A stretch of DNA of 59,831 bases, filler included, from Dugesia japonica (Eukaryota): the NCBI GenBank assembly GCA_001938525.1. It is 5 parts of 5 records of this genome, joined end to end, with 100 filler letters (N's around TTAATTAATTAA, not from the genome) between each part and the next. Parts side by side here need not be neighbours in the genome. Positions count along the whole stretch, not along the records: positions 48,155 to 59,831 come from MQRL01616135.1; 4 more parts are not named here. One strand, written 5' to 3'. The position numbers were made by a program, and so were the translations under genes. This document shows, one piece after another, positions 3,066 through 59,740 of the stretch (the first letter of the stretch is position 1; every line of letters starts with the position of its first letter). The notes under the pieces were generated by a model, which was given only the letters and a program-made list of their open reading frames with translations, was not told the origin of the DNA and ran no database searches.

Positions 3066-3124
3066 CGTTATTTATTGTTAATTAATTTATTGATTATTTT
3101 AATTAAAATTAAAAATATTCTTAC

Positions 3125-3970
3125 TGGATTCACAGAATAACTGAATTGAAATAAAAACTTAACCCATAAAGTAACTGCATACGATGTATCATCTCTCGAT
3201 GTGCTTGTATCTAACCAAAATGGTGCCACTGTAACAGAACAAAACAACATCCTGGCAAACAATGATATTGTAGAATGCATTTGAGTTTCATTAATACTTG
3301 GTAAATTTTTTCGTTTACTATTGTAATGATAAAGAATGACTTTGATAATTATGGCAAAATATATTGCTAATGAACCGAATATTGGAAAATAGATAAAAAT
3401 CAATCTTCTTACTATTCTGAATGTTAAAGTTACTCCTTGATCGACACACTCTCCCCAGGTATTATCGACTTTATATTCAACAAACCATCCAAGTCCACCG
3501 TATGATATTAGAATAGAACAACCATAACTTGTTAACAAACAACCAATTAATATTTTGTTCGAATGAAATAAACTGATTTTTCGAAAAAACAATGGTAAGA
3601 ATAACGCTAAACTTCTATACAATGTCAAATACATTTGTGCTAAATTTGAGCTTGCAAACATAACAGCATAGATACTGCCAAATACAATACAAAATGTATA
3701 ATTTTGCAAAGGAATTCTTAANNNNNNNNNNNNNNNNNNNNNNNNNNNNNNNNNNNNNNNNNNNNNNNNNNNNNNNNNNNNNNNNNNNNNNNNNNNNNNN
3801 NNNNNNNNNNNNNNNNNNNNNNNNNNNNNNNNNNNNNNNNNNNNNNNNNNNNNNNNNNNNNNNNNNNNNNNNNNNNNNNNNNNNNNNATGAATCCAATAA
3901 AACTTAATACAAAACAAGCAATCATATGAGGATAAATTTCAACAATAAATGCAGAATTATTCATTTTCAT
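3125..3970 (-). CDS. Rhodopsin-like (class A) orphan GPCR, large exon, gap inside
   Basis: Multiple hydrophobic helices; TM3 end LYRSLALFLPL (DRY-like), ECL2 Cys (WGEC), TM5 YFPIF, TM6 APFW, TM7 SYSVNP followed directly by donor gtaaga at 3124. Confidence 0.8.
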
Positions 3971-21645: not shown

Positions 21646-22069
21646 AAGTTCTATTTTAAATAAAATTAATTAATATAACATTATATGAACAATGAAAATT
21701 AATTATCATTGAATATCATTGATGAGTTTATGTATGCAAATATATTTATTTTGATATTTTATTTAGTAAGATTACTTATGTGAATACTCTGTAAATGTAT
21801 AATATATTTTATTTTGTTATGAATGTTATACGATAATAATTATGGTTTTTATTTACTTTTTAAAATTCTAGGAAATATATTTTTCATAATTTGATTTCAC
21901 AAATTAATTCTAATAATTAAGTTTTACTTTCGTAAAGTTTATAATCTTTATAGTTCCATTTATTTTCATGTGCATATCATGCAAATACATTGGAGAAATA
22001 TTTTTATCCGTGTTATATACATATATATATATATATATATATAAGAAACTTTTACGGTCAAGAATCAAG

Positions 22070-25000
22070 AAATCAATATGAAATCAACAATGAAAGAGAA
22101 TTCTAAAGAAGACCAATCCATACCAAATCAACGAATTCTGATAATTATTAAAAAACATTTAATGTTATGGATGCCAAGAATTCGGGCATATCAGAAGAAA
22201 TTGTCCAAATTTGCGTTGTTCAACATGTCAAAGGAGAGGACATTTAGGCAGAGATTGTTTTCAATCAAGGAAAAATCACATAAAGAAGAATATTACTAAT
22301 AGAAAAAATTATGATAATTATAGAATTCAAAGTTTTGAACAGACGAGATCTTCTAATCGATATGATCGAGTTGGTTTACTGGATAATGTCGGTTCTCAAA
22401 ATGACAATGCTCAGATGATTACGGAAAACTGCGAAGCTTCGACCAAAAGGGAAATGATCGGAGCTATTCAGATGGGTTAAGTGTTGTCTTTGATTTGAGA
22501 TTTATTAAGTATGAATGTGATACTGTGAATGTATGTGACTGTATGTCTGTTTATAGTGTATGTTTTTTAATGAATGTTCTGCAAATTATTTAGATATTTT
22601 TTATAATTCAAATAATTCTTTTGATGATTTTGATAATTATTTTAATAATGAATTACATGTAATGGTTACAGACTTAAAGTTTGAAAATAATGAAATTATT
22701 CCTATAACTGTTAATTGAAATAACGTAATTATTGGAAATAAGTCAGATAAAAGGCTTTTTGATTGTATATTTTTGAATGAAATTGTTTTTAATGTTTGTT
22801 TGATATAGGAGCGTTATAAGTTTTAACGTGTTTAAAGAAATAAATGAAGTTTTAGAATCAATAGAAAAATCTTTAAAAATTTCTTGCGCAAATGGAAGTG
22901 CTTTGAAAATATTTGGACACTCTTTTATAAATTTAAGATATATAAGTAAAAGTATTAGAAATAGGTTTTCCGTGGCATTGGATATAATTCCTGAAATTAG
23001 ACTAGGAATGAATATTTTAGAAAAATTAAATATAGGCTTAGTGAATATGAATGGATTAATTTCTGATCAAGAAATGAAACANAAATTTATGTAATTTAGA
23101 AGATAAATTTACGAAAAGAATAACAGATTTTGATAGACAGGAAGCATTAAAATAAAAAAACATTATAGGAAAAACTTATTCATAATATAAAACAATAATA
23201 AAATTTAACAATATTTTTATGGCAAATATAGGAAAGTAGAATATAGGAAAAACAAATATCTTAAAGCATTTGATTATGATAAATTATGAGCCAATAGTTG
23301 TACCACATAGGCAACAATCAATACATTATGATGATAAAATTTAGGAAATTATTCAGAATTTAGAGGGAAATAAAATAATATTGAAATGCAAATGCCCATG
23401 GTATTTTCAAAGTGTATGTGTTCAAAAGAAGAATTCAGCTGATATTAAAAGGTGCTTGGATTTTCAGTTGTTAAATAAACATAAAATTAGATCTGCATTT
23501 CATATTCCGAATGTAAACAAAATGTTAGATTCACTACATAGAACTAAGTACTTTTTATCAATAGATTTTGGAAATGCATATTACCAAGTTGAATTGGAGG
23601 ATTATTTAAAAATTAAAACAGCATTCCTCTACAAAATATGGGAAATAATAAGTACAAAAGAAAAGAAAATCATTTGGATATCTGAATGTGAAGTAGCATT
23701 TGAGAAACTCAAAGAGAAAATGTCAAATGCTCCTATATTATGTCACCCTGATTTTAGTCGTGAATTTATTTTAGATACGGATGCAAGTTTTGACAGTCTT
23801 GACTACTTATTGTCAAAAAAGGATAATTTTAGAAGAAAAAGAGTCATTGCTTAGGGTTCAAAAAGTATGTCAAAACATGAAGTTGGATACTGCATGACGA
23901 GAAAAGAATTACTTTTAGTATTTCACTTTACGCAACACTTTAAGCATTATTTATACAGAAAACAATTTGTATCGCAAACAGACCATAAAGCGATAACTAT
24001 TATGGTAACAACAAAGAAACCGATTACAACTTAATTTCAAAATTGGATAAATTTTCTCAGTAGTTTAAATATAAAGTTAGAGTACAGAAAAGAAGTGAAA
24101 CATTCAAACGCAGAAGCTTTATCAAGATTAAATAATCAAGTTGTGTAAACAATGTAATATGGAACACGCTAATGATAAAACTAGAAAAGCCAAAACTCGT
24201 TTATTAGTTGTAAATGAAAATATCATTAAATATGAAATGCAGAGAAATAATGAAGAAATAAATGAAATTATACATAAGATTGATAGTAAAGAGTTGATAA
24301 AATTTAAATATCAAGACGGAATTGTTTTTAAAATAATAAAATAATTGTTTCCAAGAATAAACAAAATGACATAATTATAGAAACGCACAAGAAATTATGC
24401 TACGCTGGATTTCATAAGCTGTACAGTTTTATGAAACAAAAATATTGCATGAAAAACCTTGAAAAATATCTAAAGAAAAATAAACAGAATTGTAGAATAT
24501 GTCACGAAGGAAAAGTGTATACAATAAAAAGAAAAGAGGAATACCTATAATTAGCATCTTATAAACCATTTGAACCAATTTACATAGATTTTTGCTGACC
24601 ATTTAAACTGACAAACTCAGGAAAAAGTATATATTTGGAATTATCGATCAGTATAGCAAATATATTTTACTAAAAGCGGTAAAAAATCAAGATGATAAAA
24701 CTTCAATCAAGATTTTAAATGAATGTTGGTTTTACAATTGCAATTATTTGGAGAATAATTGTTGGACATAACCATTGATCGTTTTTCAAAATTCATTTAA
24801 AATAATTTTTTGACTAAAAATCAATTCCTGAATAAGATTAAGTCAAAATATCGAATTCTATCAAATACCAAATTAAAAAAAAACAATTTCGATCGAAGGT
24901 TTTTAATCAGTATTTTAAATGAATACTGATTATTGAAGTTTAGTTTACCGAGATCGATTCATGTTAACCACGGAAGATGTTTTTTATCATCGAATTTCAA

Positions 25001-25539: not shown

Positions 25540-26772
25540 AATTTCTAAATAGAGTTCTGACACTCCTTTTATTACATTATGTAAACTTATAACAGTTATA
25601 TTAAACTCAATATTAAGTTTCATTCTAGCACATTTAAAGAATAGTTATAAGTTTATTAAACGAATTAAAATTCATGACTGAAGGAGTTATGATGAATTTG
25701 GTTCATTAAATGTAACAAATCTTTATGGATAAATTCCAATTGAAGTACCTGAAAATGTCATTGATATTGTAAGTAACTTCCTTGAAAGGTACAAAGAACA
25801 CACAAATATTCCAAAGATCATCAAAAATGATTTCAAATGTCTTATTAATTTGTGTATCTTCTCTAATAGCATTTTCATCGGCGAACTACTTTTTAATCAA
25901 AACGGTGGTCTTGCATTGGGAAATAATTTATCTCCAATTTTACCGATAATTTTCATAAAATTCATTGAAAATAAAATAATTTCTAAATCAAACAAGACCA
26001 TTCATCTTTGATTTAGATACAAAGATGATATTTTCTTTGTAACTAATTCTACTTAAGAGAATATTTTAGAAATAGCCAACAGTATAAATGATAACATTGA
26101 ATTCACTTTAGAAAAATCATTTGACTTTCAAAATCTTTTTCGAGACACTTTAGTCCAAAATAAAACTAGTGAAATATTAACTTCCAAATTATATATGAAA
26201 CCATTTCAAAGTGCACATATATTACCTTGGAGTAGTAATACTACCATCAGCCAGAAAATTAGTATAATTAAAGGTGAAAAAATTCGAGCTGAGAGACTAT
26301 CTTCAAATGAAGAAATGAAATTGATTTCTCTTGAGTTAATAAAAAATAAATTCTTAATTAACGTCTACCCAAATAAAATTATATCAAAATATTCATCTTT
26401 CAATACAATCTATAATAAAATCAAACCAAAACAGGCTACATTTCCACGCTTCATAGGAAAACATGAAGAATTACAAATTAAAGAAGATAATCTTAAAATC
26501 AATGTAATTTTTAATAATTAAACAATTAAACTTAAAAAAAATAAAAATTAAATGAAAAAAAATTAAATTAATTAAAAAAATATTTCCATTATAAACATTA
26601 ATCTTAATTAAAAAAAAAGTCAATTCTTGACGAAGACAAAATCAAAAATTAGAATTATTATCGAAAACAAAGAAAACTTGATCGAAGCTTTTATTTTAAT
26701 GAATTCTGAAAAACGATCAATGATTACATCCATTAATTATTCTCGCAATAATTGTACTTGTAAAACAAAACT

Positions 26773-35734: not shown

Positions 35735-37011
35735 TTAGGTTGGTAAGAAAATAATTGCGGTTTTTAACATATACAAGTAAAAGTAAAAATCTCGGAAAAC
35801 ATAAAGATATTTTATTCAAAATACGAGCCATTACAATCAATACATTTCTCCCAACGAGAAATAAGTTTATTTATGCCAATAGAATAAAATCCTCTGTCCT
35901 GGATTCGACGAACTCGAGAAAGGCATTTTTAACATCGTTGTCGTTATGAAAGACTTTATCTTGAAAAAAATTGGAGAGATAATAAAAAAAATGATAGTCG
36001 GTTGGTGACATGTCCGGAGAGTATGGTGGATGAGGCAGACTTTCAAATCCTAAATCATATAGTTTCTGCAGGGATAATTTTGCGACGTGTGGATGGGCAT
36101 TGTCGTATAGAATAATGGGAGGTTTTCTGTAAACTAATGCGGCGCACATAGATTTCAATTAGCGGTGCATTTAGTCAATTTCTTGACAATTTTTTTCTGT
36201 CGTTATAGTTTCACCTTGATTTAAAAAGTTGTAATGAACCAGACCGACTGTGGACCACCAAACCGTCATCATTGTCTTTATTTATGCAATTTCGGCTTTG
36301 GAAAATGATATGGTGCTTCGCCTTTGTCCAACCATTGCGATGCCCACTTCCTATTGTCGTATACAATACATTTTTCGTCGCAAGTCACAATGCAATCAAG
36401 AAATGGATTGATTTTATTTCTAAACAGATTCGCCGCGCAGATCTCGTAACGGCAGTTTTTCTGAAAATCGTTCAATTCATGCGGAACCCATTTATCGAGC
36501 TTCCGTACTTTTCCAAGTTGATGGAGGTGGTATAAAGCTGTTACGTGACTTACGTCTAAATTCTTCCCAAGCTCCCGAGTTGTTGCGCGTGGACCTGCTT
36601 TGATCATTACCTTCAAATCGTCCTTGCTAACTTCTGATGGACGTCCCCGACCTTCACCATCTTCAAGGCTCTCATCTCCACTCTTGAATTTTTTAAACAA
36701 AAATTGCACCGTTTTTTCTTTTGCAGTTTCATTGCCGAATGCGTTGTTGACTTTCTGAGTCGTCTCTGATGCTTTAGATCCCAGTTTACATTCATATATT
36801 GCTCGTATTTGATATTTATCCAACATGTCTTCCAAAAATAATATTTCACAATAAAATAGTAATAAAAATAAAATATTACTTGTATAGTGTAGAATTGAAT
36901 ATCCTCTTCAAAATGACATATAGACTAATATGTTAAAACAAATAGTTCTTTTAAATAATTACTTTTAAAGTAATAATATATAAAACCGCAATTATTTTCT
37001 TACCAACCTAA
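35735..37011 (-). mobile_element. Full-length mariner (DD34D, cecropia/Hsmar1-like), 1277 bp, transposase disrupted
   Basis: Perfect 30-bp TIRs ttaggttggtaagaaaataattgcggtttt, TA on both flanks; WVPHEL, VTCDEK, YDNAHPH, YSPDMSPTDYH; in-frame stops. Confidence 0.97.
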
Positions 37012-39899: not shown

Positions 39900-40782
39900 N
39901 NNNNNNNNNNNNNNNNNNNNNNNNNNNNNNNNNNNNNNNNNNNAAGATTATCAATTTGACCACCAGCCCTTCAGCACTTCACATTAATAGCGTCAATGTT
40001 GAGCCATTCGACAGCTCGGTCCATCAAACAAACTGCAGACAAAGTAAGATGTTTGTGTCAACAGAAACCAGCATTTTGAAAGCTTGAACGATAGATTGAA
40101 CAGAGTATTCTGTATTCATCTCTTGGTGATATCAACCAACTGGACACCAAGTGTACGAGAACTGCAGGGATAGTCAGATGGAGCAGTGGTTGGAACAGTT
40201 CTAAGGTGCTCAGAGACCTCCAAACAGTACCATTCTCTGAGTAGGAACCGCATTCAAATTTACCCAACACAATCGTGAATCTAGAACGATTGCATAAAGA
40301 ACTGAATCAGCAAGTTTCTCGAGATCGATAGCAGGAGTCTTTATGCATGAGCTGAGGTAAGGTTTCTCCGCCTCGCCTTGATAGAACAAGGAAGATAAGC
40401 GTCGTTGTCGTATCGAATAACGCATGGAATAGACAAAACCGAGTCAACAACAATGAGATTGAATTGTCTGGAACAAGACTATGCTTACAATAATTTTGAA
40501 TTTCCAGATCGAGTAGAGCGCCACAATCGTAATTATTATTGCACGCTAATCGCTACACATCCAATATTATTCTATTATCATTCTTTCTTCGACTTTTAAC
40601 AACATAACTAACCAATCTGGAATTGTTGATAGACGCGACATTTAATAAATTTAATCGATTATTTAAATTTATTAGAATTTTATTAAAAGAATACAAATAA
40701 AGAAAAATCGGTATTAATTATTTATATAAAACGACTAATTATAATTTTTCAATAATCAAAGAAATAATAAAGAAAAACTTAC

Positions 40783-41286
40783 TCTAATGTTATCATTCGC
40801 ATTCCCGCTGTTGCCATCAAATAAAATGGAGTTTCATTATGAAGAGATTTGGGAACACTGTTCGCAGCTAAATCCAATAATGGCTTAATATACGACATGG
40901 CTTTATCTGGCTGATCTGCCAACGACGATAATCCCGGATTGACTTTTTTCACAATTGGTTTTCCGGATTCATCTAATAAAGGTTGGATTTGCAATAATTC
41001 GCCCGGATTTCCAGTATGAGGAGGCCAAGTATAAATAAACAATCTACTACCACTACTTCCTTGAAAAATTGGTTACTACTTATAACTTGAAAATATCAAC
41101 ACCTGCATCAATAATAACTCCATAATGATTCATTAATTTGGAATTATCAAATTTATCATGTGTAACTGTGTAGTTCTTGATTTGTCGAACAAAAATAGTG
41201 GAATCCATAAAAAAATATAGCATCAAAATCAAAATTAAAAATATTAAAATGATAGTAAATAATTTTTTGAACATTTTCATAGTCAT
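40783..41286 (-). CDS. ENTPD4: Ectonucleoside triphosphate diphosphohydrolase (GDA1/CD39 family, ENTPD4/7-like), exons 41286-41103 and 41059-40783
   Basis: N-terminal TM helix; a 43-bp GT-AG intron (41102-41060) joins YGVIIDAG/SSGSRLFIYTWPPHTGNP (ACR1); ETPFYLMATAGMR (ACR2); donor gtaagt at 40782. Confidence 0.92.
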
Positions 41287-41811
41287 ATATTCAAAACTAA
41301 GAAATTCAAGTTTTGGATAAAAAAAATCAATCCCGAAAAAATTGCAAGAATATATTATAAAATCTCGACAAAAACTTATTGGTTATCCTCTATTTATAAA
41401 AATGTGTTTTTAAATTTCAAATTAACGTTAAAAATAATTTTTAAAAATATTTTTTTTAAATATTGAATCATAAAAAGTGGCATATTAATTCATTTATTGT
41501 TTTAAACAAACTTTCATCCTCGTCTAATTATTATTAAATTTTCACAAAATTACTTGTCAGCATAAAATTGTGAAGCATTATAACTGTAAATCATTTTAAT
41601 TGTAATAAATAATCCTGTATTTTTGTATTTAATATTGATAATAACTTTTAATAACTCATTGTTAACTTGTTTTCTGATATATTTATAACAATGAAGAAGT
41701 ACCATTAATCTGAAATTACAATTTACGAACGAAGAAATTTTCAAAATAGGCTTTAGATTCTTTTTTTTTGAAATTTTTTTTTCAAAATATTTCACTAAAA
41801 TTAAATTATTA

Positions 41812-48154: not shown

Positions 48155-48630
48155 AAAAAAAGTATTTCCCGCATGGTATAGTCGGAGGAGATGAAAAGTA
48201 AATTAATTTTGGTAATTCTAAGCGTAAAAGATCGTGAGTTTATCCGGGCCAGTTGACATCATTCAACCGTATAGTGCAATTTTCATAGGAAGTGTTATCG
48301 TATGTGGGATGGGATCAAAAAGATATTCTGTTTTATGAGTTACTGAAACTAGGAGAAACAGTTGCTGGCAATCGTTATGAACATCTAATAATGAAATTAT
48401 ATCATGAACTCGCAGGAAAAGAACCAGAATGGGCTGCCAAGCAACAGAAAGTGATCTTGCTGCATGACAACGCCCAGGTTCATGTTGTAAAACCTATCAA
48501 AGACAAGTTGAAAGAGCTGAAATGGGAAGTCTTACACCACCCGCCGTACACAGCAGACATTGCTCCGTCGGATTACCACTTTTTACGATCGATGGCACAA
48601 CATCTTTAGAGCAGAAGTTCAAAAATTATT
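48155..48630 (+). mobile_element. Mariner transposase catalytic fragment
   Basis: VGGDEK, VILLHDNAQVH, WEVLHHPPYTADIAPSDYHF. Confidence 0.92.
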
Positions 48631-51019: not shown

Positions 51020-52385
51020 CATTGATTTAGATGAATAATAAATATTGCATAAAATAAAATTTTGTACAGCATATGTTTCGAATTTTTGATTATAACTATG
51101 AGCTAATAACAATTAATAACATTCATGAGCCAGGAGCCAATTAAAATCAAATTTGAAATTACAAGACGGGATACAGTATAGTCCCGCTGAATCCGGGAAT
51201 GTGCGATTAAGGTGTAGGAGAAGGCATCACACACATTTCTGAAATTACTAGCTAAACTGGGCCACAATCTTGATTTATATTTAGATTGTAAAACTCGTTG
51301 GAGTTCTATTGTTAATATGATAACTATATTTGTTAAACTACGAAAATTCATCGAAGAAGCTTTAGTGGATCTCAACTTTTCTCACATGCTTGATTATATC
51401 GGATTTAATTAGCTCAAATATCTCCAGAATTTTCTTGAACCTGTCAAATTAGCAATTAAGGTTTTAAGCCGAAACAATACGACTCTGCATTCAGCTGATA
51501 TTACATTGGAGTATATGAAAAGCAAAATTTCGAACCGTAAAAGTAAAATAGCGTTGGAATTATTAGATAATATGGAGAAGAAAATTAATCAGCGAGTCAA
51601 TTTAAATTTAATAATTTTTTTCAAAGCGCTTAAAGATCCAAAATGTTTACCTTCTAAACAGGTTTTAGACTTACCCACACAATTATTAAAAAGACTTTAC
51701 CAAGTATATGATAATAATGAATCAATGACAACTTCGCCAGACCAGTTTAAAATCAAAACGCTTAAACTTTGACAATGAAGGAAGAGCTGGAAATAATTTT
51801 GAAAAACGCAGCTGAGCCTCAACCTCCAAAAGAGTCTGCAATTTGTAACAAACTAAAACAAGAACATTTGCTTTTCAGAAATAATGGAAAACAAACTAGT
51901 AATCTTGATGATCTTTTCAGGGTACTTTTGTCTATAAAACCAACTTCAACTTCTAATGAAAGAACGCTTTCAATTAGTGACAACTTCTGCACTAAAATCA
52001 GATCAAGACTTGCTGACAAATCTCTAAATTCATTGTTTTTTTGAAATATTTGTACCTTCAACCAAAAAATAAAGAAAGTAATTAAAAAAATTTATTAAAT
52101 GATTACCTAAATTACGTTAATGTTCAAATAGTTATATTATGTAACTAGTTTGAAAGCTTTTAAGTATCGAAAATAAATGAATTAATTAATAAATTTGAGT
52201 ACAATTTCTTTTTAAATTTTTTGCACGACCATTACATCACAAATTTCAGTTGAATTGAAAATCATATAATATTATTTCATCAGATTCTTGTAATATTTTT
52301 TGTTAAAGACAACGTCTCGACGAGTTTTTGAAATTTTGAACTCGGACTCGTCGAGTCTTAAAAATCCGAGTTTTCAGAAATCCTA
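51020..52385 (+). mobile_element. hAT transposon, degenerate, with right terminus
   Basis: LYLDCKTRWSSI, FLEPVKLAIKVLSR, KPTSTSNERTLSIS...KIRSRLAD; subterminal (ct)cgag/ctcgg repeats; end cagaaatccta. Confidence 0.9.
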
Positions 52386-53190: not shown

Positions 53191-55013
53191 GGTAAAACTA
53201 ATGATGAGTCTCAATAATTACATATATTTTTATTTGTAAACCTTCATGTTTTTACGCATGAAGTTTCACACTTCAAGCATGACATTATTGATGAATCTTA
53301 AAGTTTTAATATTATTATTATTATTGTTGGGGTGAAACCCCTAATATCGAAATTAAAAATGGCAATAGGTATACTTGAAATTCAAAAAATGGTCGTCAGT
53401 AAAGAAAGCAGAGCACTTGGACCTAAGAAGAACATAATTCAGTGAAATAAAGAGATAATTAAAAGAAAAACCAAGAGTGGTAGCTAAAACTAACGAAACA
53501 ATCAACGAAACCCAAAATTTACAAGAAACTCAGAAAAGAACAGACCAAAGAAGATAAGAAGTAATAGAAGTTGTAGCAGGACAAAGAAAGATAATGAATA
53601 ACTATTAGTTCATTGGGCAAAATCAAGAAAATGGAATTAATACTGGAAGAACGAAAAATTAATTAAATGAATTAAATGAAGAAAACAGTGAAATTAAATT
53701 AAAACCAAATCAAGGAACAAAGAAATAAACACCTAATTAAGATGCACCAAGAAAATAAAATAAATAATTTATTTATTTAAATAAAATAATTCGAACAATT
53801 TAAAATAAATTATTTTTTAAAGAAAAATAATTAGTCCGTGAAAACTGGCAAAAACGACGACTTCCCATGGTGGAAAAGTTAGCAGTTAAAAAAGTTCTGG
53901 TCAAGAAAAAATCGGAGATCTTAAAAATCTAAGTTAAAAAATCATTATAGGTCTCAGAAAAAAGATACAAGGGTTTAAAGGCTGTCCAATAGATTCAAAA
54001 TCTAAAAATATCAACCAATAAAAAGAACTCACGTGACGTTCAAGCCAATGGNNNNNNNNNNNNNNNNNNNNNNNNNNNNNNNNNNNNNNNNNNNNNNNNN
54101 NATATCAACCAATAAAAAGAACTCACGTGACGTTCAAGCCAATGGAAACATCAGAAAAATCATACGACTCCAAATGAACGGAATGGGGGTGTGAAGAGAA
54201 ACCGGTATGAATACCGATGAAAATTTCACAAAATTAACACTTCTTAACCAGAAAAATATCGAGTTTGACCGGAAAAAATTCTAGTATCACCAAAGGTGAT
54301 TATTTTTACTCGTTAATGTATGATGCAACGATTTCCGACTGGATTGCGATGTCTTGGTATTATTGGGGACCTCTGGAGTCACTAGTGGAAACAAATGAGA
54401 TGGATGTTATGCTCTTGTGCTTGCTCCGGATCGGGATTCAGTCATGTTAGTTGTTTGTTATAATTGTTAAATTTATGCCCCAGTAACAGTAAAATTTAGA
54501 ATATAATTTTTCACTCGTTGAATTCTGCTATTCCTTATAACAGTAAAACCAAAGGGTATTGATTTTTAACCTAAAAGTAGTAATTAAACAAACTCAGTTA
54601 AAAATGTTTAACCGTTTATATGAAACGATTTTTAATTAATTAAGACCTCATTAATTGATAAATTAAAATCTAATAAATGAGTTAGAAGTTGAAGTATAAT
54701 GGACTTATGACTGTTAAATATGATTTGTAACTACAGCGAGTATCATGAAATATGGACCCGAACATAAGGAGTGCGAGTCTACTCATATTTCGAGTCAATG
54801 GCTCCATTCCAAAGATCTGGATTTTTGGGGACACTAGATTCAAATTCATCGCGGGGTTTTACCAGGTCAATTANNNNNNNNNNNNNNNNNNNNNNNNNNN
54901 NNNNNNNNNNNNNNNNNNNNNNNNNNNNNNNNNNNNNNNNNNNNNNNNNNNNNNNNNNNNNNNNNNNNNNNNNNNNNNNNNNNNNNNNNNNNNNNNNNNN
55001 NNNNNNNNNNNNN

Positions 55014-55080: not shown

Positions 55081-55119
55081 AATTTATATTATTGTTATTA
55101 ATATAAAAAATACGAAAAG

Positions 55120-55497
55120 AAAATGTTTATTTCCACGATGACAGGTAATGTACAGTTTTAAACATTTTTTGTAAGCACAGTAATCTCCATGATTATAATA
55201 TGGACAAGAAATATTATCCGGTATATTTAATTGAAGATGCTCAGCTGAGTTATAATTGGCAATTCAAAGACTCGGGAAAATATGTTAGAGAGTATTGATT
55301 TTCTTTCCATTCACGTGATCATTCACATAAAACAGTGAATCTTTTGCAATGGTTTTTAAGTCATTGAGAATTCGAATTGGATCAAATTTATAATCTTTAT
55401 CAATCCACCTGAGATGATGACGCCAGAGTCGTAAGTACTCATTAGTTGTTTGAGCAGACTTTGATAAACTACCCATTGATTTCGTCATGGCAAACAT
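55120..55497 (-). pseudogene. Maverick-associated small ORF with Cys/His-rich C-terminus
   Basis: ORF 55497-55285 continues in frame through two stops to IPDNISCPYYNHGDYCAYKKCLKLYITCH. Confidence 0.5.
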
Positions 55498-55632
55498 GAA
55501 TTAAAACGGTTAAAGAATATTATTCACATCCATTGTACATAGTTATTTAATTAAATAGTCGACATTATTATCCTGAAAGGCTTCATAATCAATAAAAAAC
55601 ACAGACATTTTAAAATTTTATTGATAATCACA

Positions 55633-55710
55633 TTAACATTGTTTATACTGGCTTTTAAGCCATTCAATACAATATTGTCCACAAAGAAATGTCAATGGAT
55701 TTTATTCTAT
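55633..55710 (-). pseudogene. Adenain-like cysteine protease C-terminal remnant
   Basis: E*NPLTFLCGQYCIEWLK (Q-x6-CGxYC catalytic motif, Gln codon read as TAA). Confidence 0.6.
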
Positions 55711-55714
55711 TTTC

Positions 55715-57266
55715 AATTTTGTTGATGGAAGATGATCAGACAGGTAAATACATTGGAATTTCAAGTCTTATATGCACAACGTCACCAAATGAATGCCTTA
55801 TTACTATCAACCCATATACTCCTCAAATGTGGCATGCGTACATCACCAACCAGAATTGAATCGACTATTGNNNNNNNNNNNNNNNNNNNNNNNNNNNNNN
55901 NNNNNNNNNNNNNNNNNNNNNNNNNNNNNNNNNNNNNNNNNNNNNNNNNNNNNNNNNNNNNNNNNNNNNNNNNNNNNNNNNNNNNNNNNNNNNNNNNNNN
56001 NNNNNNNNNNNNNNNNNNNNNNNNNNNNNNNNNNNNNNNNNNNNNNNNNNNNNNNNNNNNNNNNNNNNNNNNNNNNNNNNNNNNNNNNNNNNNNNNCGAA
56101 ATTTTATTGGTTTATTTTTTTTATTTTTAATTTTAATAATTTTTATTTTTAAATCAACTCAAAAAATTTTCAAAATTTTTTTTTAATTAATACAGAAAAG
56201 TCTTTTAGATATTGTAGATATATTGTACTTAGAATTTTTTAATTTTAAAATTTTGTATTTTTTTTTGAAAATTTTTAAAAATTTTATTTTGTGTTTTTTT
56301 AAACATATAATTTATGTTATTTTAAATAAATATTATTTTTTATAAATTTCTCTTTTAAAATTCATTCAAAAATGAACTAATTTTACACCAAATTATAAAA
56401 TTTATTTTTTTGAACTAAAAATCCGTAACCATTAAATGACTTTCAAATTCAAAATAATTGATTGCTGTTTTGATTTCAGTAAATTTTAGTTTAACATCAG
56501 TTTTGGCGATATTGTCCAACATTTTAGTATCTGATTCGATAAATGAATCCATCGATTTGTTTTTCGTCTTTTGTGAATTAAACCNCAGTAACCGAGCATC
56601 AAACAATAAATTAAACTCCAATTCCATATTGCAATCAGATTTGATAATTATTTTCTTTTTACCATTAATACTAATTTCGCAATTCTTTTTATTTTTGAAT
56701 CCAGAAACAACAGGTTTTCCATTTTTAATCTCAACATTTACATTTTCNNNNNNNNNNNNNNNNNNNNNNNNNNNNNNNNNNNNNNNNNNNNNNNNNNNNN
56801 NNNNNNNNNNNNNNNNNNNNNNNNNNNNNNNNNNNNNNNNNNNNNNNNNNNNNNNNNNNNNNNNNNNNNNNNNNNNNNNNNNNNNNNNNNNNNNNNNNNN
56901 NNNNNNNNNNNNACGATTTAAACTCCATTTCTACTTGACAATCTGTTTTTAATATTACTTTCTTTTCATCGGAAAATATATACCAGCTATATTTATTGGT
57001 AGGGACGGTATTATAAAGTTGAAGACTGCCATTTACAATACTTAATTGAAATTTATCTTCAATTTCCATCACTTCTATTATTTTATATTCAATTTTGAAC
57101 CTTTCCGTATGGTCTGTGGACAATAATTGAAAACAAATTCTGTCATGGCAGCTTCCCAATGGTCATCTTTTAAATTGATGGCATTCTCAACCAAATATTT
57201 GCTTGCATTATTATCAGTTCGAGTTCTTGGACAGCTATTGCTTTGCAAAATCATATAGAAACTCAT
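55715..57266 (-). pseudogene. Polinton minor capsid (penton-like) gene, disrupted
   Basis: N-terminus MSFYMILQSNS...DNNASKY...INLKDDHWEAAMTEF; C-terminus IVDSILVGDVRMPHLRSI...PMYLPV*SSSINKIE; interrupted by gaps and the repeat at 56097-56415. Confidence 0.75.
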
Positions 57267-57268
57267 TA

Positions 57269-58254
57269 TTAGATTTGAGATGCTTGAATCCACTTAGGCT
57301 TTGAATAGCCATACCATTCAACTAGATATTGCTTATATTGGCCTTGACATTTGGTTTAGAGAATTGATTTAATTCGATATATACTTGGTTTTTCCGTCAA
57401 CTCCTTCTCATAGAATTTGCCTTGAATAATATTACCATCTTCATCACGTATTACATACATGACTGGAGTCTGTCTGGTATTGATTTCCGAGATTTGAAAG
57501 ACTTCATTATTCCAATTATTATCAAAGTTTTTAATGAATGGTGTAGTACTAATTCGAGAAATCTGTACATGTTGTCCAATTTTTTATTTTGGTTTTGGTT
57601 TTTTTATTGATGAAATACTGTGTATAATCATCATCATCTGTAACATCAACTGTCTTCTTTCCTCCTCCAATATCTCTATGCTCAGAATGTTTGTATGCAT
57701 AAATCATTTTTATCCATTTTTTATTACCTTGTTTGATAAAAAATTTGTTTAATCGTGTGCATAGTGTTCGATTAAATCGCTCAACTAGAGCAGCCTTGTA
57801 CTGAGAAAATACTGAATAGTGCAGTATACTATATTGTTTCAGTAATGATTTGACCTGTGTATTATAAAACTCTTTACCCAAATCGGTTTGAATAGCTTTT
57901 GTGTGAACATCTTTAAACATTACCGTCAAAGCCAACAACATATCTTTACCAGATTTCCGGTTTAATGGAACTGCACGAGCAAATCGACTAAATACATCCA
58001 ACACATGTCAAAATATATTGATAATCATTATTTATGCTTGCATATGGAATCATTTCTATCAAATCTATTTCCCATAGTCTATTAACCCCAGCAACAATAT
58101 ATTTGCGGGTTGGAAACCGTTTTCGCATTGGTCTATTCAAACTATGTGCCAACTGATTACCTAACCATTTCTTCGTCTTTTTTGTAGCATTTGCAAGCTT
58201 TGAAATACCGGTGTATCCAACTGGATTCTTTGGATTGTACCATAGTTGTTCCAT
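57269..58254 (-). pseudogene. Maverick c-integrase (DDE) with C-terminal chromodomain-like region
   Basis: WYNPKNPVGYTG, LWEIDLIEM, YILTC/DVFSRFA, IQTDLGKEF, KAALVERFNRTL; tail KIGQHVQIS...NWNNEVF...IQGKFYEKEL...YLVEWYGY...KWI*. Confidence 0.93.
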
Positions 58255-58360
58255 CAACTTGATTGCGTGAAATACAACAACAAATATTTAATGAATTGTC
58301 TGGAAGATTAGAAGGTGCAACACCCATTTATATTGCAATATCAAAAACAATTTAAATTGT

Positions 58361-58724
58361 TTATACAGAATCAATAATTTTCTTTGTAGCAGCCCCAACT
58401 GCACCCGTTGCTGCCGCTTTACCCAACAAACTTATAATCGGTAAAAGTGCAGCCCAAACAAACCTATTTCTAATTTGTCCGTAATAAACTTGTTTGTTAC
58501 TCTTCTTCTTGTTTTCATTTCGTAAAGTAAAATGTCTTTCAAGTATTCGTTTCTTTGCTGCCAAATTCATTGCTTTCGCCATGTCTACAAGAGCTTCTTG
58601 ATACTTTTTTCATCGACAGTTTCCATTTTTATGACCAACATTGACTCGACCTAAAAGAATTTGTTGCAAAACACTAATGAAATCATTCATTACAAATTCG
58701 AGCATGGAGTGCATAATTTGCCAT
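58361..58724 (-). pseudogene. Polinton small basic protein with amphipathic C-terminus (adenovirus pX-like)
   Basis: QILLGRVNV...KKYQEALVDMAK...AAKKRILE...FVWAALLPIISLLGKAAATGAVGAATKKIID. Confidence 0.6.
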
Positions 58725-58764
58725 AAAAAATTTGATAGAGCCCTAAATATGAATACAAAAATAA

Positions 58765-58793
58765 TATATATAGGCTCATGATTATTGCTCATT
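58765..58793. promoter_or_regulatory. Candidate bidirectional TATA box with TCATT initiator
   Basis: Palindromic TATATATA at 58765-72 between divergent ATGs (58724 minus, 58806 plus); TCATT at 58789-93. Confidence 0.4.
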
Positions 58794-58805
58794 TTTTATT
58801 AAACA

Positions 58806-59261
58806 ATGTTATCAAATATTAATTACAGAGCTCATCTAATTGATTCACTTTCAAATCTTCGATTTAATACCTGGAAGAAACCCAGACAGTGTGTAATGAA
58901 AATGAAAGATTATTCAGTAATTGTTTTTGATAGTGGAAAATGTCGAATCATGGGATGCAAGAAACCAATCATGAACAAATGACTTGCAAAGATATCAATA
59001 TCCAAATAGATGGTATTCAATCAATTACTTTAACATGTGATCTTGACACTTGGTGAATTTATATAGATTGAGCAAGGTAATAGATTGTGGGTTAGAACCG
59101 GAATTATTTCCAGCATTACGAATCAACAAGTATAAGCCATTATGGTCAGTGTTTTTGCCAGTGGAAAAGTGGTAATTCTTGGACTAAAGTCATTTGATTA
59201 TCATGAAGTTATCAAAGAAATTACAAAATATATACAACATTTTTTAAATGAATCAAATTAA
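58806..59261 (+). pseudogene. TATA-binding-protein-like gene (two-repeat core only), three frameshifts
   Basis: MLSNINY...SVIVFDSGKCRIMGCKK / IQSITLTCDL / VNLYRLS...LEPELFPALRI..YKP / VSVFASGKVVILGLKS versus TBP LIFSSGKMVCTGAKS and YEPELFPGLIYR...IFVSGKVVLTGAK. Confidence 0.85.
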
Positions 59262-59320: not shown

Positions 59321-59740
59321 ATGATATAAGAACAACAAAACGAATTGGATCATCAATCATCTAAGTGAAAATTTAAAATTCACCGTTTCCACTTGTTTGA
59401 GAAACCAATTATTGTTAATATTAAAGACAGTGCAGAAATTGAAAAATCCAAGAACTTGTATCTCATAAAGAATATGAGTGGGCATTATCTAGATAATATG
59501 AGGCAAGCAATGAAACAATTGAATGTTGATTTGGATTTCAAAGAAAAATCTTTTGATCATCTTTACTTACCAGGTCATAAAATAACAATTTTGGATATTA
59601 TTGGTAGAAAATTGGAAAAGATGCCGAAATCAATAAAGTGTCGACTCAAAATTGCTCTGAATGGTTTTAAACAAATGAATCATGATTATGATGAGATTCC
59701 ATTGTGGGATATAAAGCAAATAATGTATAACTATCAATAA
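59321..59740 (+). pseudogene. Maverick-associated hypothetical ORF (5' end disrupted)
   Basis: 115-aa open frame 59393-59740; upstream ATG at 59321 preceded by tandem TATAAAT motifs at ~59280-59295. Confidence 0.5.

Follow-up and report, generated by a model that had tools for sequence, protein, structure and literature searches.

A decayed Polinton of Dugesia japonica carries a dead member of a conserved family of shortened TATA-binding proteins associated with a candidate promoter word

The window, the whole stretch of 59,831 nucleotides of Dugesia japonica DNA analysed here, carries, in a decayed Polinton, a gene that is dead but belongs to a widespread family of Polinton genes under selection, which encode short TATA-binding proteins, hereafter mini-TBPs (Table 1). 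An intronless gene of about 150 amino acids hidden by three frameshifts had been proposed in the initial annotation. Indeed, it runs from an ATG at 58806 to a stop codon at 59259-59261 in four pieces of differing frames, separated by breaks near 58975, 59045 and 59135. Both TBP repeat motifs quoted earlier were found in it, as were three of the four DNA-intercalating phenylalanines and the KKPRQ read at the first position. The Pfam TBP domain matches the gene twice, separately, in piece 1 (E = 0.0065, 16.7 bits) and in piece 4 (E = 0.00029, 21.1 bits), both under the curated cut-off of 22.9 bits. With piece 1 as the sole query, three intact proteins were retrieved at 59-78% identity; the intact 174-aa protein P0003, which has a Pfam TBP domain, is 78% identical to that piece.

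A profile built from three relatives, searched across proteins of 84-305 aa only, retrieved 421 proteins at E ≤ 1e-3, a set that probably includes some ordinary TBPs. Among the 120 that were listed, lengths run from 130 to 198 aa (median 149.5), and a second profile made from these 120 gave 58 representatives at 50% clustering and E ≤ 1e-30. A search of IMG/VR returned two distant giant-virus-type TBPs and nothing else, and the ESM Atlas returned TBP clusters alone, with a low recognition score. We showed that the intact genes are under purifying selection: pN is below pS in all 136 pairs drawn from 17 intact family genes, and dN/dS is 0.13-0.23 in the nine unsaturated pairs among the 14 closest.

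The family is linked to Polintons. From 226 confirmed metagenome loci, 80 were kept and 26 taken as family members. Nine of the 26, among them all five that exceed 4 kb, carry at least one gene for an ATPase, integrase, protease, pPolB or putative capsid protein. Furthermore, 24 of the 26 have a gene cluster in common with Polinton-gene loci, directly or through a chain; the remaining two are short, with uninformative neighbours. Locus L083 was located via its putative capsid gene, by means of a profile derived from relatives of the TBP-bearing elements; it holds a mini-TBP (E = 2e-48) together with pPolB, ATPase, integrase and protease genes. Genes for pPolB, the packaging ATPase and the major capsid protein (the last label without Pfam support) were found in the relatives L024, L018 and L083. 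L038, a locus of 11.4 kb, is a Polinton whose TBP is full-length and divergent; it also has two minor-capsid-like genes. The Pfam TBP scores of L024, L083 and L038 (56.7, 40.6 and 73.3 bits) all exceed the curated cut-off. The integrase, packaging ATPase, adenain-like protease, pPolB and pX-like genes of these relatives are those of Polintons, Mavericks, adintoviruses and MELD viruses. Thus, many other Polinton copies carry a TBP gene beside ATPase, integrase, protease and pPolB genes: the view of the TBP as element cargo stands, and it is a regular component of a wide lineage rather than the odd cargo first supposed. The contigs of L083 (1-12666) and L084 (1-4976) lie within bacterial genome bins and are probably misbinned eukaryotic-virus DNA. 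L024 has KilA-N and PLA2-like genes aboard as well.

Table 1. Features of the decayed Polinton in the window
Feature	Position	Strand	Evidence and remarks
Mini-TBP pseudogene	58806..59261	+	about 150 codons, three frameshifts, no intron
Promoter-like signals of host type, putative, of the TBP gene	58765-58774 TATATATAGG; 58789-58794 TCATTT	+	read from the sequence; presumed function
Decayed homolog of a conserved neighbour family, predicted T7 gp2.5-like ssDNA-binding fold	59369..59740	+	tblastn E 2e-4; alignment 21% identity
pX-like gene, frameshifted, start codon uncertain	58364..58792	-	tblastn against L018 homolog E 6e-10
TATAAAC word	58359..58365	-	31 nt ahead of the small MG ORF
56-aa ORF, intact, MG start, Cys-rich, overlapping the integrase start	58157..58327	-	counterparts in L006, L008, L018, L083
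Integrase, retroviral type, three frames	57272..58263	-	Pfam rve E 3e-6; tblastn E 2e-94
Putative minor capsid remnants, spanning two assembly gaps	55697..57317	-	tblastn against L013, L018, L083 homologs
Protease-like 18-codon tail	55648..55701	-	E 0.009 (tblastn, 61% over 18 aa); directly adjoins the end of the minor capsid gene
TATAAAC word	55641..55647	-	32 nt ahead of the exonuclease-like gene
Exonuclease-like gene, decayed, conserved, D-x-E motif	55105..55608	-	tblastn E 3e-22

The copy in the window was described as decayed throughout, with a pX-like gene about 80 bp from the TBP gene and an integrase at about 550 bp. The integrase distance is right: its homology begins near 58260, 546 nt from the TBP gene. 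The pX-like gene is indeed the neighbour, at a gap of 14-80 nt that depends on the choice of its start codon; its homology begins at 58759, and its homologs in L038 and L083 match Adeno_PX weakly. Most neighbours are decayed as stated, but the 56-aa ORF is unbroken. This small ORF has no Pfam match; in the window, L006, L008, L018 and L083, such a Cys-rich ORF with an MG start precedes or overlaps the integrase start, with the candidate promoter word described below 14-31 nt ahead. The homologs of the exonuclease-like gene have no Pfam match either, and the capsid, pVII and exonuclease labels, which Pfam leaves without a match, are putative assignments made largely from gene order. For the ssDNA-binding-like gene, the model of its L012 relative has gp2.5-type proteins as its best four matches, with middling scores (Z 7.0-7.6). 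In SSB-like ORFs of the relatives (L004:665, L009:576, L012:1479), a GT...AG stretch lies directly before the ATG, which suggests a spliced two-exon gene and hence nuclear Pol II transcription.

No homology to major capsid, ATPase or pPolB genes was found in the window by tblastn, and the window ends 570 nt beyond the mini-TBP gene, so that a single side of the element lies inside it. The adenain-like protease, recognised as Peptidase_C5 in relatives, is present as the 18-codon remnant alone. Since this tail abuts the minor capsid end and the three homologies are missing, the copy appears to be internally deleted, with the putative major capsid gene and most of the protease gene gone; it is also cut by the window end. 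This deletion had been overlooked in the initial annotation, as had the loss of one whole helix from repeat 1 described below. A 2.9-kb stretch of the element was compared with two public runs from the same organism: 4966 contigs of one and 4365 of the other aligned, covering all 30 bins and mostly at 85-99% identity; such numbers indicate that the element, the TBP region included, is a repeat family in that organism. RNA reads align evenly to both strands, mostly at 85-95% identity, and are therefore uninformative on expression. At 54006-54146, a repeated unit with CCAAT and CACGTGACGT flanks an assembly gap; it may represent a repeat of the element, subterminal or promoter-related, or have arisen by duplication in the assembly.

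We also addressed the origin of the gene with a rapid maximum-likelihood tree built from 79 rows chosen by hand, in which the window gene was entered with X at its breaks and support was given by SH-aLRT without bootstrap. The window gene falls inside a group of 33 mini forms (support 100). These are placed among longer forms, two of which are Polinton-linked (L024 and L025), and mini forms, longer forms and L038 together make a 52-row group (support 96). Fourteen eukaryotic TBPs (fungal, plant and protist-like) form a separate group (support 95). Animal TBPs and TRFs are absent from the rows, and long-branch attraction may affect the topology. As mini forms are nested among full-length ones, the full-length protein would have come first and the helix loss later. 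A one-off retrocopy of a host TBP or TRF inserted in a Polinton is consistent with the intronless, decayed state of the window gene and with a tree that lacks animal TBP and TRF sequences, but we consider it highly improbable. Indeed, three supported nodes (95, 96 and 100) place the gene inside the mini-TBP clade, it has the deletions and residues found in the family only, an intact relative is merely 21-27% identical to solved TBPs, and the family is linked to Polintons at other loci. A recent host retrocopy is excluded because these deletions and residues are common to the family. Element cargo, nested in a Polinton clade away from the cellular TBPs of a tree without an animal TBP or TRF row, is thus the reading retained. 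Just beyond the eukaryotic clade, L034, L036, L042, L045 and L055 form a tight group of TBPs of about 220 aa on contigs of at most 33 kb.

The mini-TBPs are predicted to adopt the two-repeat saddle fold of PF00352. An AlphaFold model of the intact relative P0004 (pLDDT 95.8) can be superposed on human TBP (152 residues aligned, Z 13.6, rmsd 2.7 Å), and a Foldseek search with this model gave 44 matches at E ≤ 0.001, with TBP throughout those listed. Together with the Pfam matches of the relatives, these comparisons bear out the TBP assignment. Like cellular and archaeal TBPs (PF00352; 7egb_P, 1cdw_A, 2z8u), the mini-TBP would form a full-length saddle (Z about 13) with three of the phenylalanines and the EPELF stirrup. 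It differs from cellular TBP, to which it is 21-27% identical, by its size (about 150 aa against about 180), by a shortened H1 and an absent H2 in repeat 1, by a proline in place of the first phenylalanine and by a DNA face with invariant Arg, Met and Asn. The model shows a complete repeat 2, whereas its repeat 1 has an H1 of four residues, a short strand where H2 would be, and no helix between residues 17 and 86. The repeat-1 linker is 17-22 aa long in 108 of the 114 members parsed, compared with 32-33 aa in five cellular TBPs and 27-30 aa in seven long forms. H2 and its basic regulatory face are therefore predicted to be lost in mini-TBPs. In the accessible text of one study, basic residues of the N-lobe contact TFIIA, TAF1, Mot1 and Brf, three of these being on H2 (PMC7221094).

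The proline of KKPRQ is a family trait and not a product of decay, being present in 119 of the 120 listed members, in which the three other phenylalanines are kept. Further substitutions on the DNA face are near-invariant among the same members: Arg and Met in 120/120, Asn in 119/120. Relative to fungal TBP, Phe is replaced by Pro, two Val by Asn and Arg, respectively, Thr by Met, Asn by Ser and Leu by Asn, at positions taken to be DNA-facing. The TBP of L038, the most divergent member, is without the Arg, Met and Asn of the family. The glutamate pair of repeat 2 that binds TFIIB is conserved in 116/120 and 120/120 listed members. According to the text available for PMC7221094, these two glutamates are the TFIIB contact of TBP; in viral TBPs the first is about 40% conserved, and most of these viruses bring their own TFIIB. 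No match to a TFIIB family was found with Pfam among 80 and 31 chosen ORFs of the elements, all of which are incomplete, so that a viral cofactor could escape notice.

The TBP-bearing loci have a candidate promoter word in common. In a scan of heptamers over 25 family loci (the near-identical L014 dropped, starts called mechanically), TATAAAC ranks first of 16,004: 22 of its 49 copies lie 20-40 nt upstream of starts, against 1.7% of positions. TATAAAA and TATAAAT have little peak at this distance. Of the 27 packaging, structural and integrase genes, 24 have the degenerate form YATAAAC within 120 nt upstream. The same holds for 1 of the 21 TBP genes, for 1 of 10 genes that are SSB-type or neighbouring, and for a single one of 405 windows on the opposite strand; these statistics are overstated, since the 20-40 nt range was picked after viewing, the gene classes were set by hand and several loci are close kin. 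Conversely, TCAYWW is near the start of 16/21 TBP genes and of 3/27 packaging, structural and integrase genes, and a canonical TATA..G precedes 6/21 TBP genes. CCAAT boxes do not separate the classes (6/21 TBP genes, 8/27 of the others). In L083 the word is ahead of all seven packaging, structural and integrase genes, and not of the TBP, pPolB and exonuclease-like genes; in L084 it precedes four of five such genes, the integrase being the exception. The window element keeps the word at two matching sites, 31 and 32 nt before starts. Across the whole window YATAAAC occurs at chance (39 copies, 39 expected), so that its position inside the element alone is informative. On the plus strand of L024, CATAAAC (14 copies) outnumbers TATAAAC (2) with a wider spacing, and its close relative L025 has both. 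Leucine-rich-repeat genes with a hydrophobic N-terminus (L015:1307-1843 and L017:1618-1971) form a cargo near the TBP gene and have the same word upstream.

In L038, the element with the most divergent TBP, ATGCAAA takes the same spacing ahead of packaging and structural genes (5/8, TATAAAC 0/2), a case that rests on this one element. ATGCAAAT is also the POU octamer. Among 56 other TBP loci, TATAAAC falls in the 20-40 nt range in 1/31 copies, a weak control as these loci are mostly GC-rich cellular DNA and include L038. Scans of viral contigs found no TBP-less Polinton, and a genome scan gave the TBP-bearing L083 and the 5-kb fragment L084, whose shortness precludes a judgement on its TBP status. 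The word may therefore occur in Polintons at large, with the host as its reader.

We propose that the mini-TBP is an early product that recognises YATAAAC and brings host TFIIB and Pol II to the late genes, a scheme that we consider reasonably probable. We infer the following course. Host machinery would transcribe the TBP and SSB-like genes first, from a promoter of host type. The mini-TBP would then bind YATAAAC ahead of packaging and structural genes, favouring it over TATAAAAG, and once bound would recruit host TFIIB and RNA polymerase II. Lacking H2, it would escape the host regulators that dock there, namely TFIIA, TAF1, Mot1 and Brf. A role in virion-gene expression had been suggested for the protein from the start, and the positions of the promoter word favour it, as indirect support. 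Against this late-factor scheme, the word also occurs beyond the structural genes, upstream of 4/4 exonuclease-like genes and of several unassigned ORFs, and one of the four intercalating phenylalanines is lost. A broader version is conceivable, and we hold it tentatively: a large branch of animal Polintons would run a two-stage programme with the smallest working two-repeat TBP, its host-regulated face shed, using host TFIIB and a co-evolved private word, YATAAAC or, in a divergent lineage, ATGCAAA.

TATAAAC differs from the canonical TATA box by one base, and we assume it to be the variant known as C(-25). Wild-type plant TBP was crystallised on a C(-25) TATA variant, to go by the entry title of 1qn3. 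Host TBP might thus read the word, the mini-TBP being a decoy that ties up TFIIB or occupies promoters and dampens host transcription. The existence of that structure and the TATA-like character of the word agree with this, as does the near-invariance of the acidic TFIIB-binding pair on a protein whose DNA face has changed. We nonetheless regard it as unlikely: the changes of the DNA face are near-invariant new residues and not drift, the word is avoided ahead of the TBP gene (1/21), and it differs in L038, where the TBP is most divergent. It could also be that the mini-TBP bends DNA for replication or packaging and that the word is an ordinary promoter read by the host. While the gene often adjoins the SSB-like gene or the ATPase gene, and helix H2 and one phenylalanine are lost, such a function gives no reason for keeping the TFIIB-contact residues or for avoiding the word before the TBP gene, and we find it quite improbable.

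The late-factor scheme resembles known viral systems. The mimics of beta- and gamma-herpesviruses, such as KSHV ORF24, likely follow the same logic, with a viral TBP fold, a variant TATA word, late genes and host Pol II (accessible text of PMC7498053 and PMC12529657). As described there, ORF24 carries additional domains, interacts with the Pol II CTD, needs viral cofactors and is incompatible with TFIIB. In contrast, the mini-TBP consists of the core alone (median 149.5 aa, in a search limited to proteins of 84-305 aa), has no extra Pol II-binding domain and retains the TFIIB-contact residues. Both herpesviruses and mini-TBP elements place a variant TATA word before structural genes; the words differ, and for the elements the likeness concerns sequence positions only. 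By analogy, the mini-TBP could read the word and yet need an unrecognised partner encoded by the element. The requirement of ORF24 for viral cofactors (PMC7498053, PMC12529657, same text) makes this conceivable, and several conserved ORFs of the elements have no Pfam match. The canonical glutamate pair is retained, and the TBP is the only ORF cluster present in most loci, although most loci are short; we judge such a dependence rather unlikely. The TBP-like proteins of NCLDVs and mirusviruses (PMC7221094, in its accessible text; BFVD matches) are likewise divergent and have lost the regulatory signature of the N-lobe. There, they are mostly paired with a viral TFIIB and have lost the glutamate pair, whereas mini-TBPs keep the pair, belong to small integrating elements and come with no TFIIB in the ORFs scanned.

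Viral TBPs are already known, and the mini-TBP is a new viral TBP variant with a testable promoter partner. The initial annotation had raised the possibility that it was undescribed. The label TBP has already been printed for a small Polinton-like virus, in the legend of Fig. 5 of the 2021 MELD-virus paper, in a section on non-animal datasets (Starrett et al., PMC8502044); no description of the family was found. In the text available, that paper gives the label only, with no family, structure or promoter ('promoter' occurs 0 times), and a search of the accessible supplement for TBP gave no match. This paper and its preprint are the only literature that we found linking TBP with Polinton-like viruses, within their accessible parts, and the literature open to search, which leaves out subscription papers and repeat databases, yielded no paper describing the mini-TBP family. 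In the accessible main texts of three Polinton surveys (PMC11161782, PMC10748475, PMC8097293), TBP, TATA and transcription are absent, and the accessible text of PMC7221094 does not mention Polintons.

A conserved factor and a matching promoter word allow a direct test of how Polintons time their capsid genes, and together argue for a virus-like early/late cycle in these elements. If the broader version is true, they would form an orthogonal TBP-promoter pair by which Polintons gate virion production. Moreover, a natural TBP that lacks H2 and has a rewired DNA face would show how small a TBP can be and still support initiation, and how its specificity can change. The window copy itself, being dead, adds one member to the family.

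The DNA around it is AT-rich, gapped and of animal type. It includes host-gene exons of a GDA1/CD39 NTPDase (40782-41382, minus strand, E = 6e-26) and a 7TM GPCR-like exon (3071-3721, minus strand, E = 0.011). Mobile-element debris is found at 22045-24547, 25733-26518, 35874-36907, 48289-48606 and 51413-52041, as decayed LTR-retrotransposon, non-LTR, mariner-like and hAT remnants, the hAT remnant being called with Pfam (E = 3e-5) and the others by eye.
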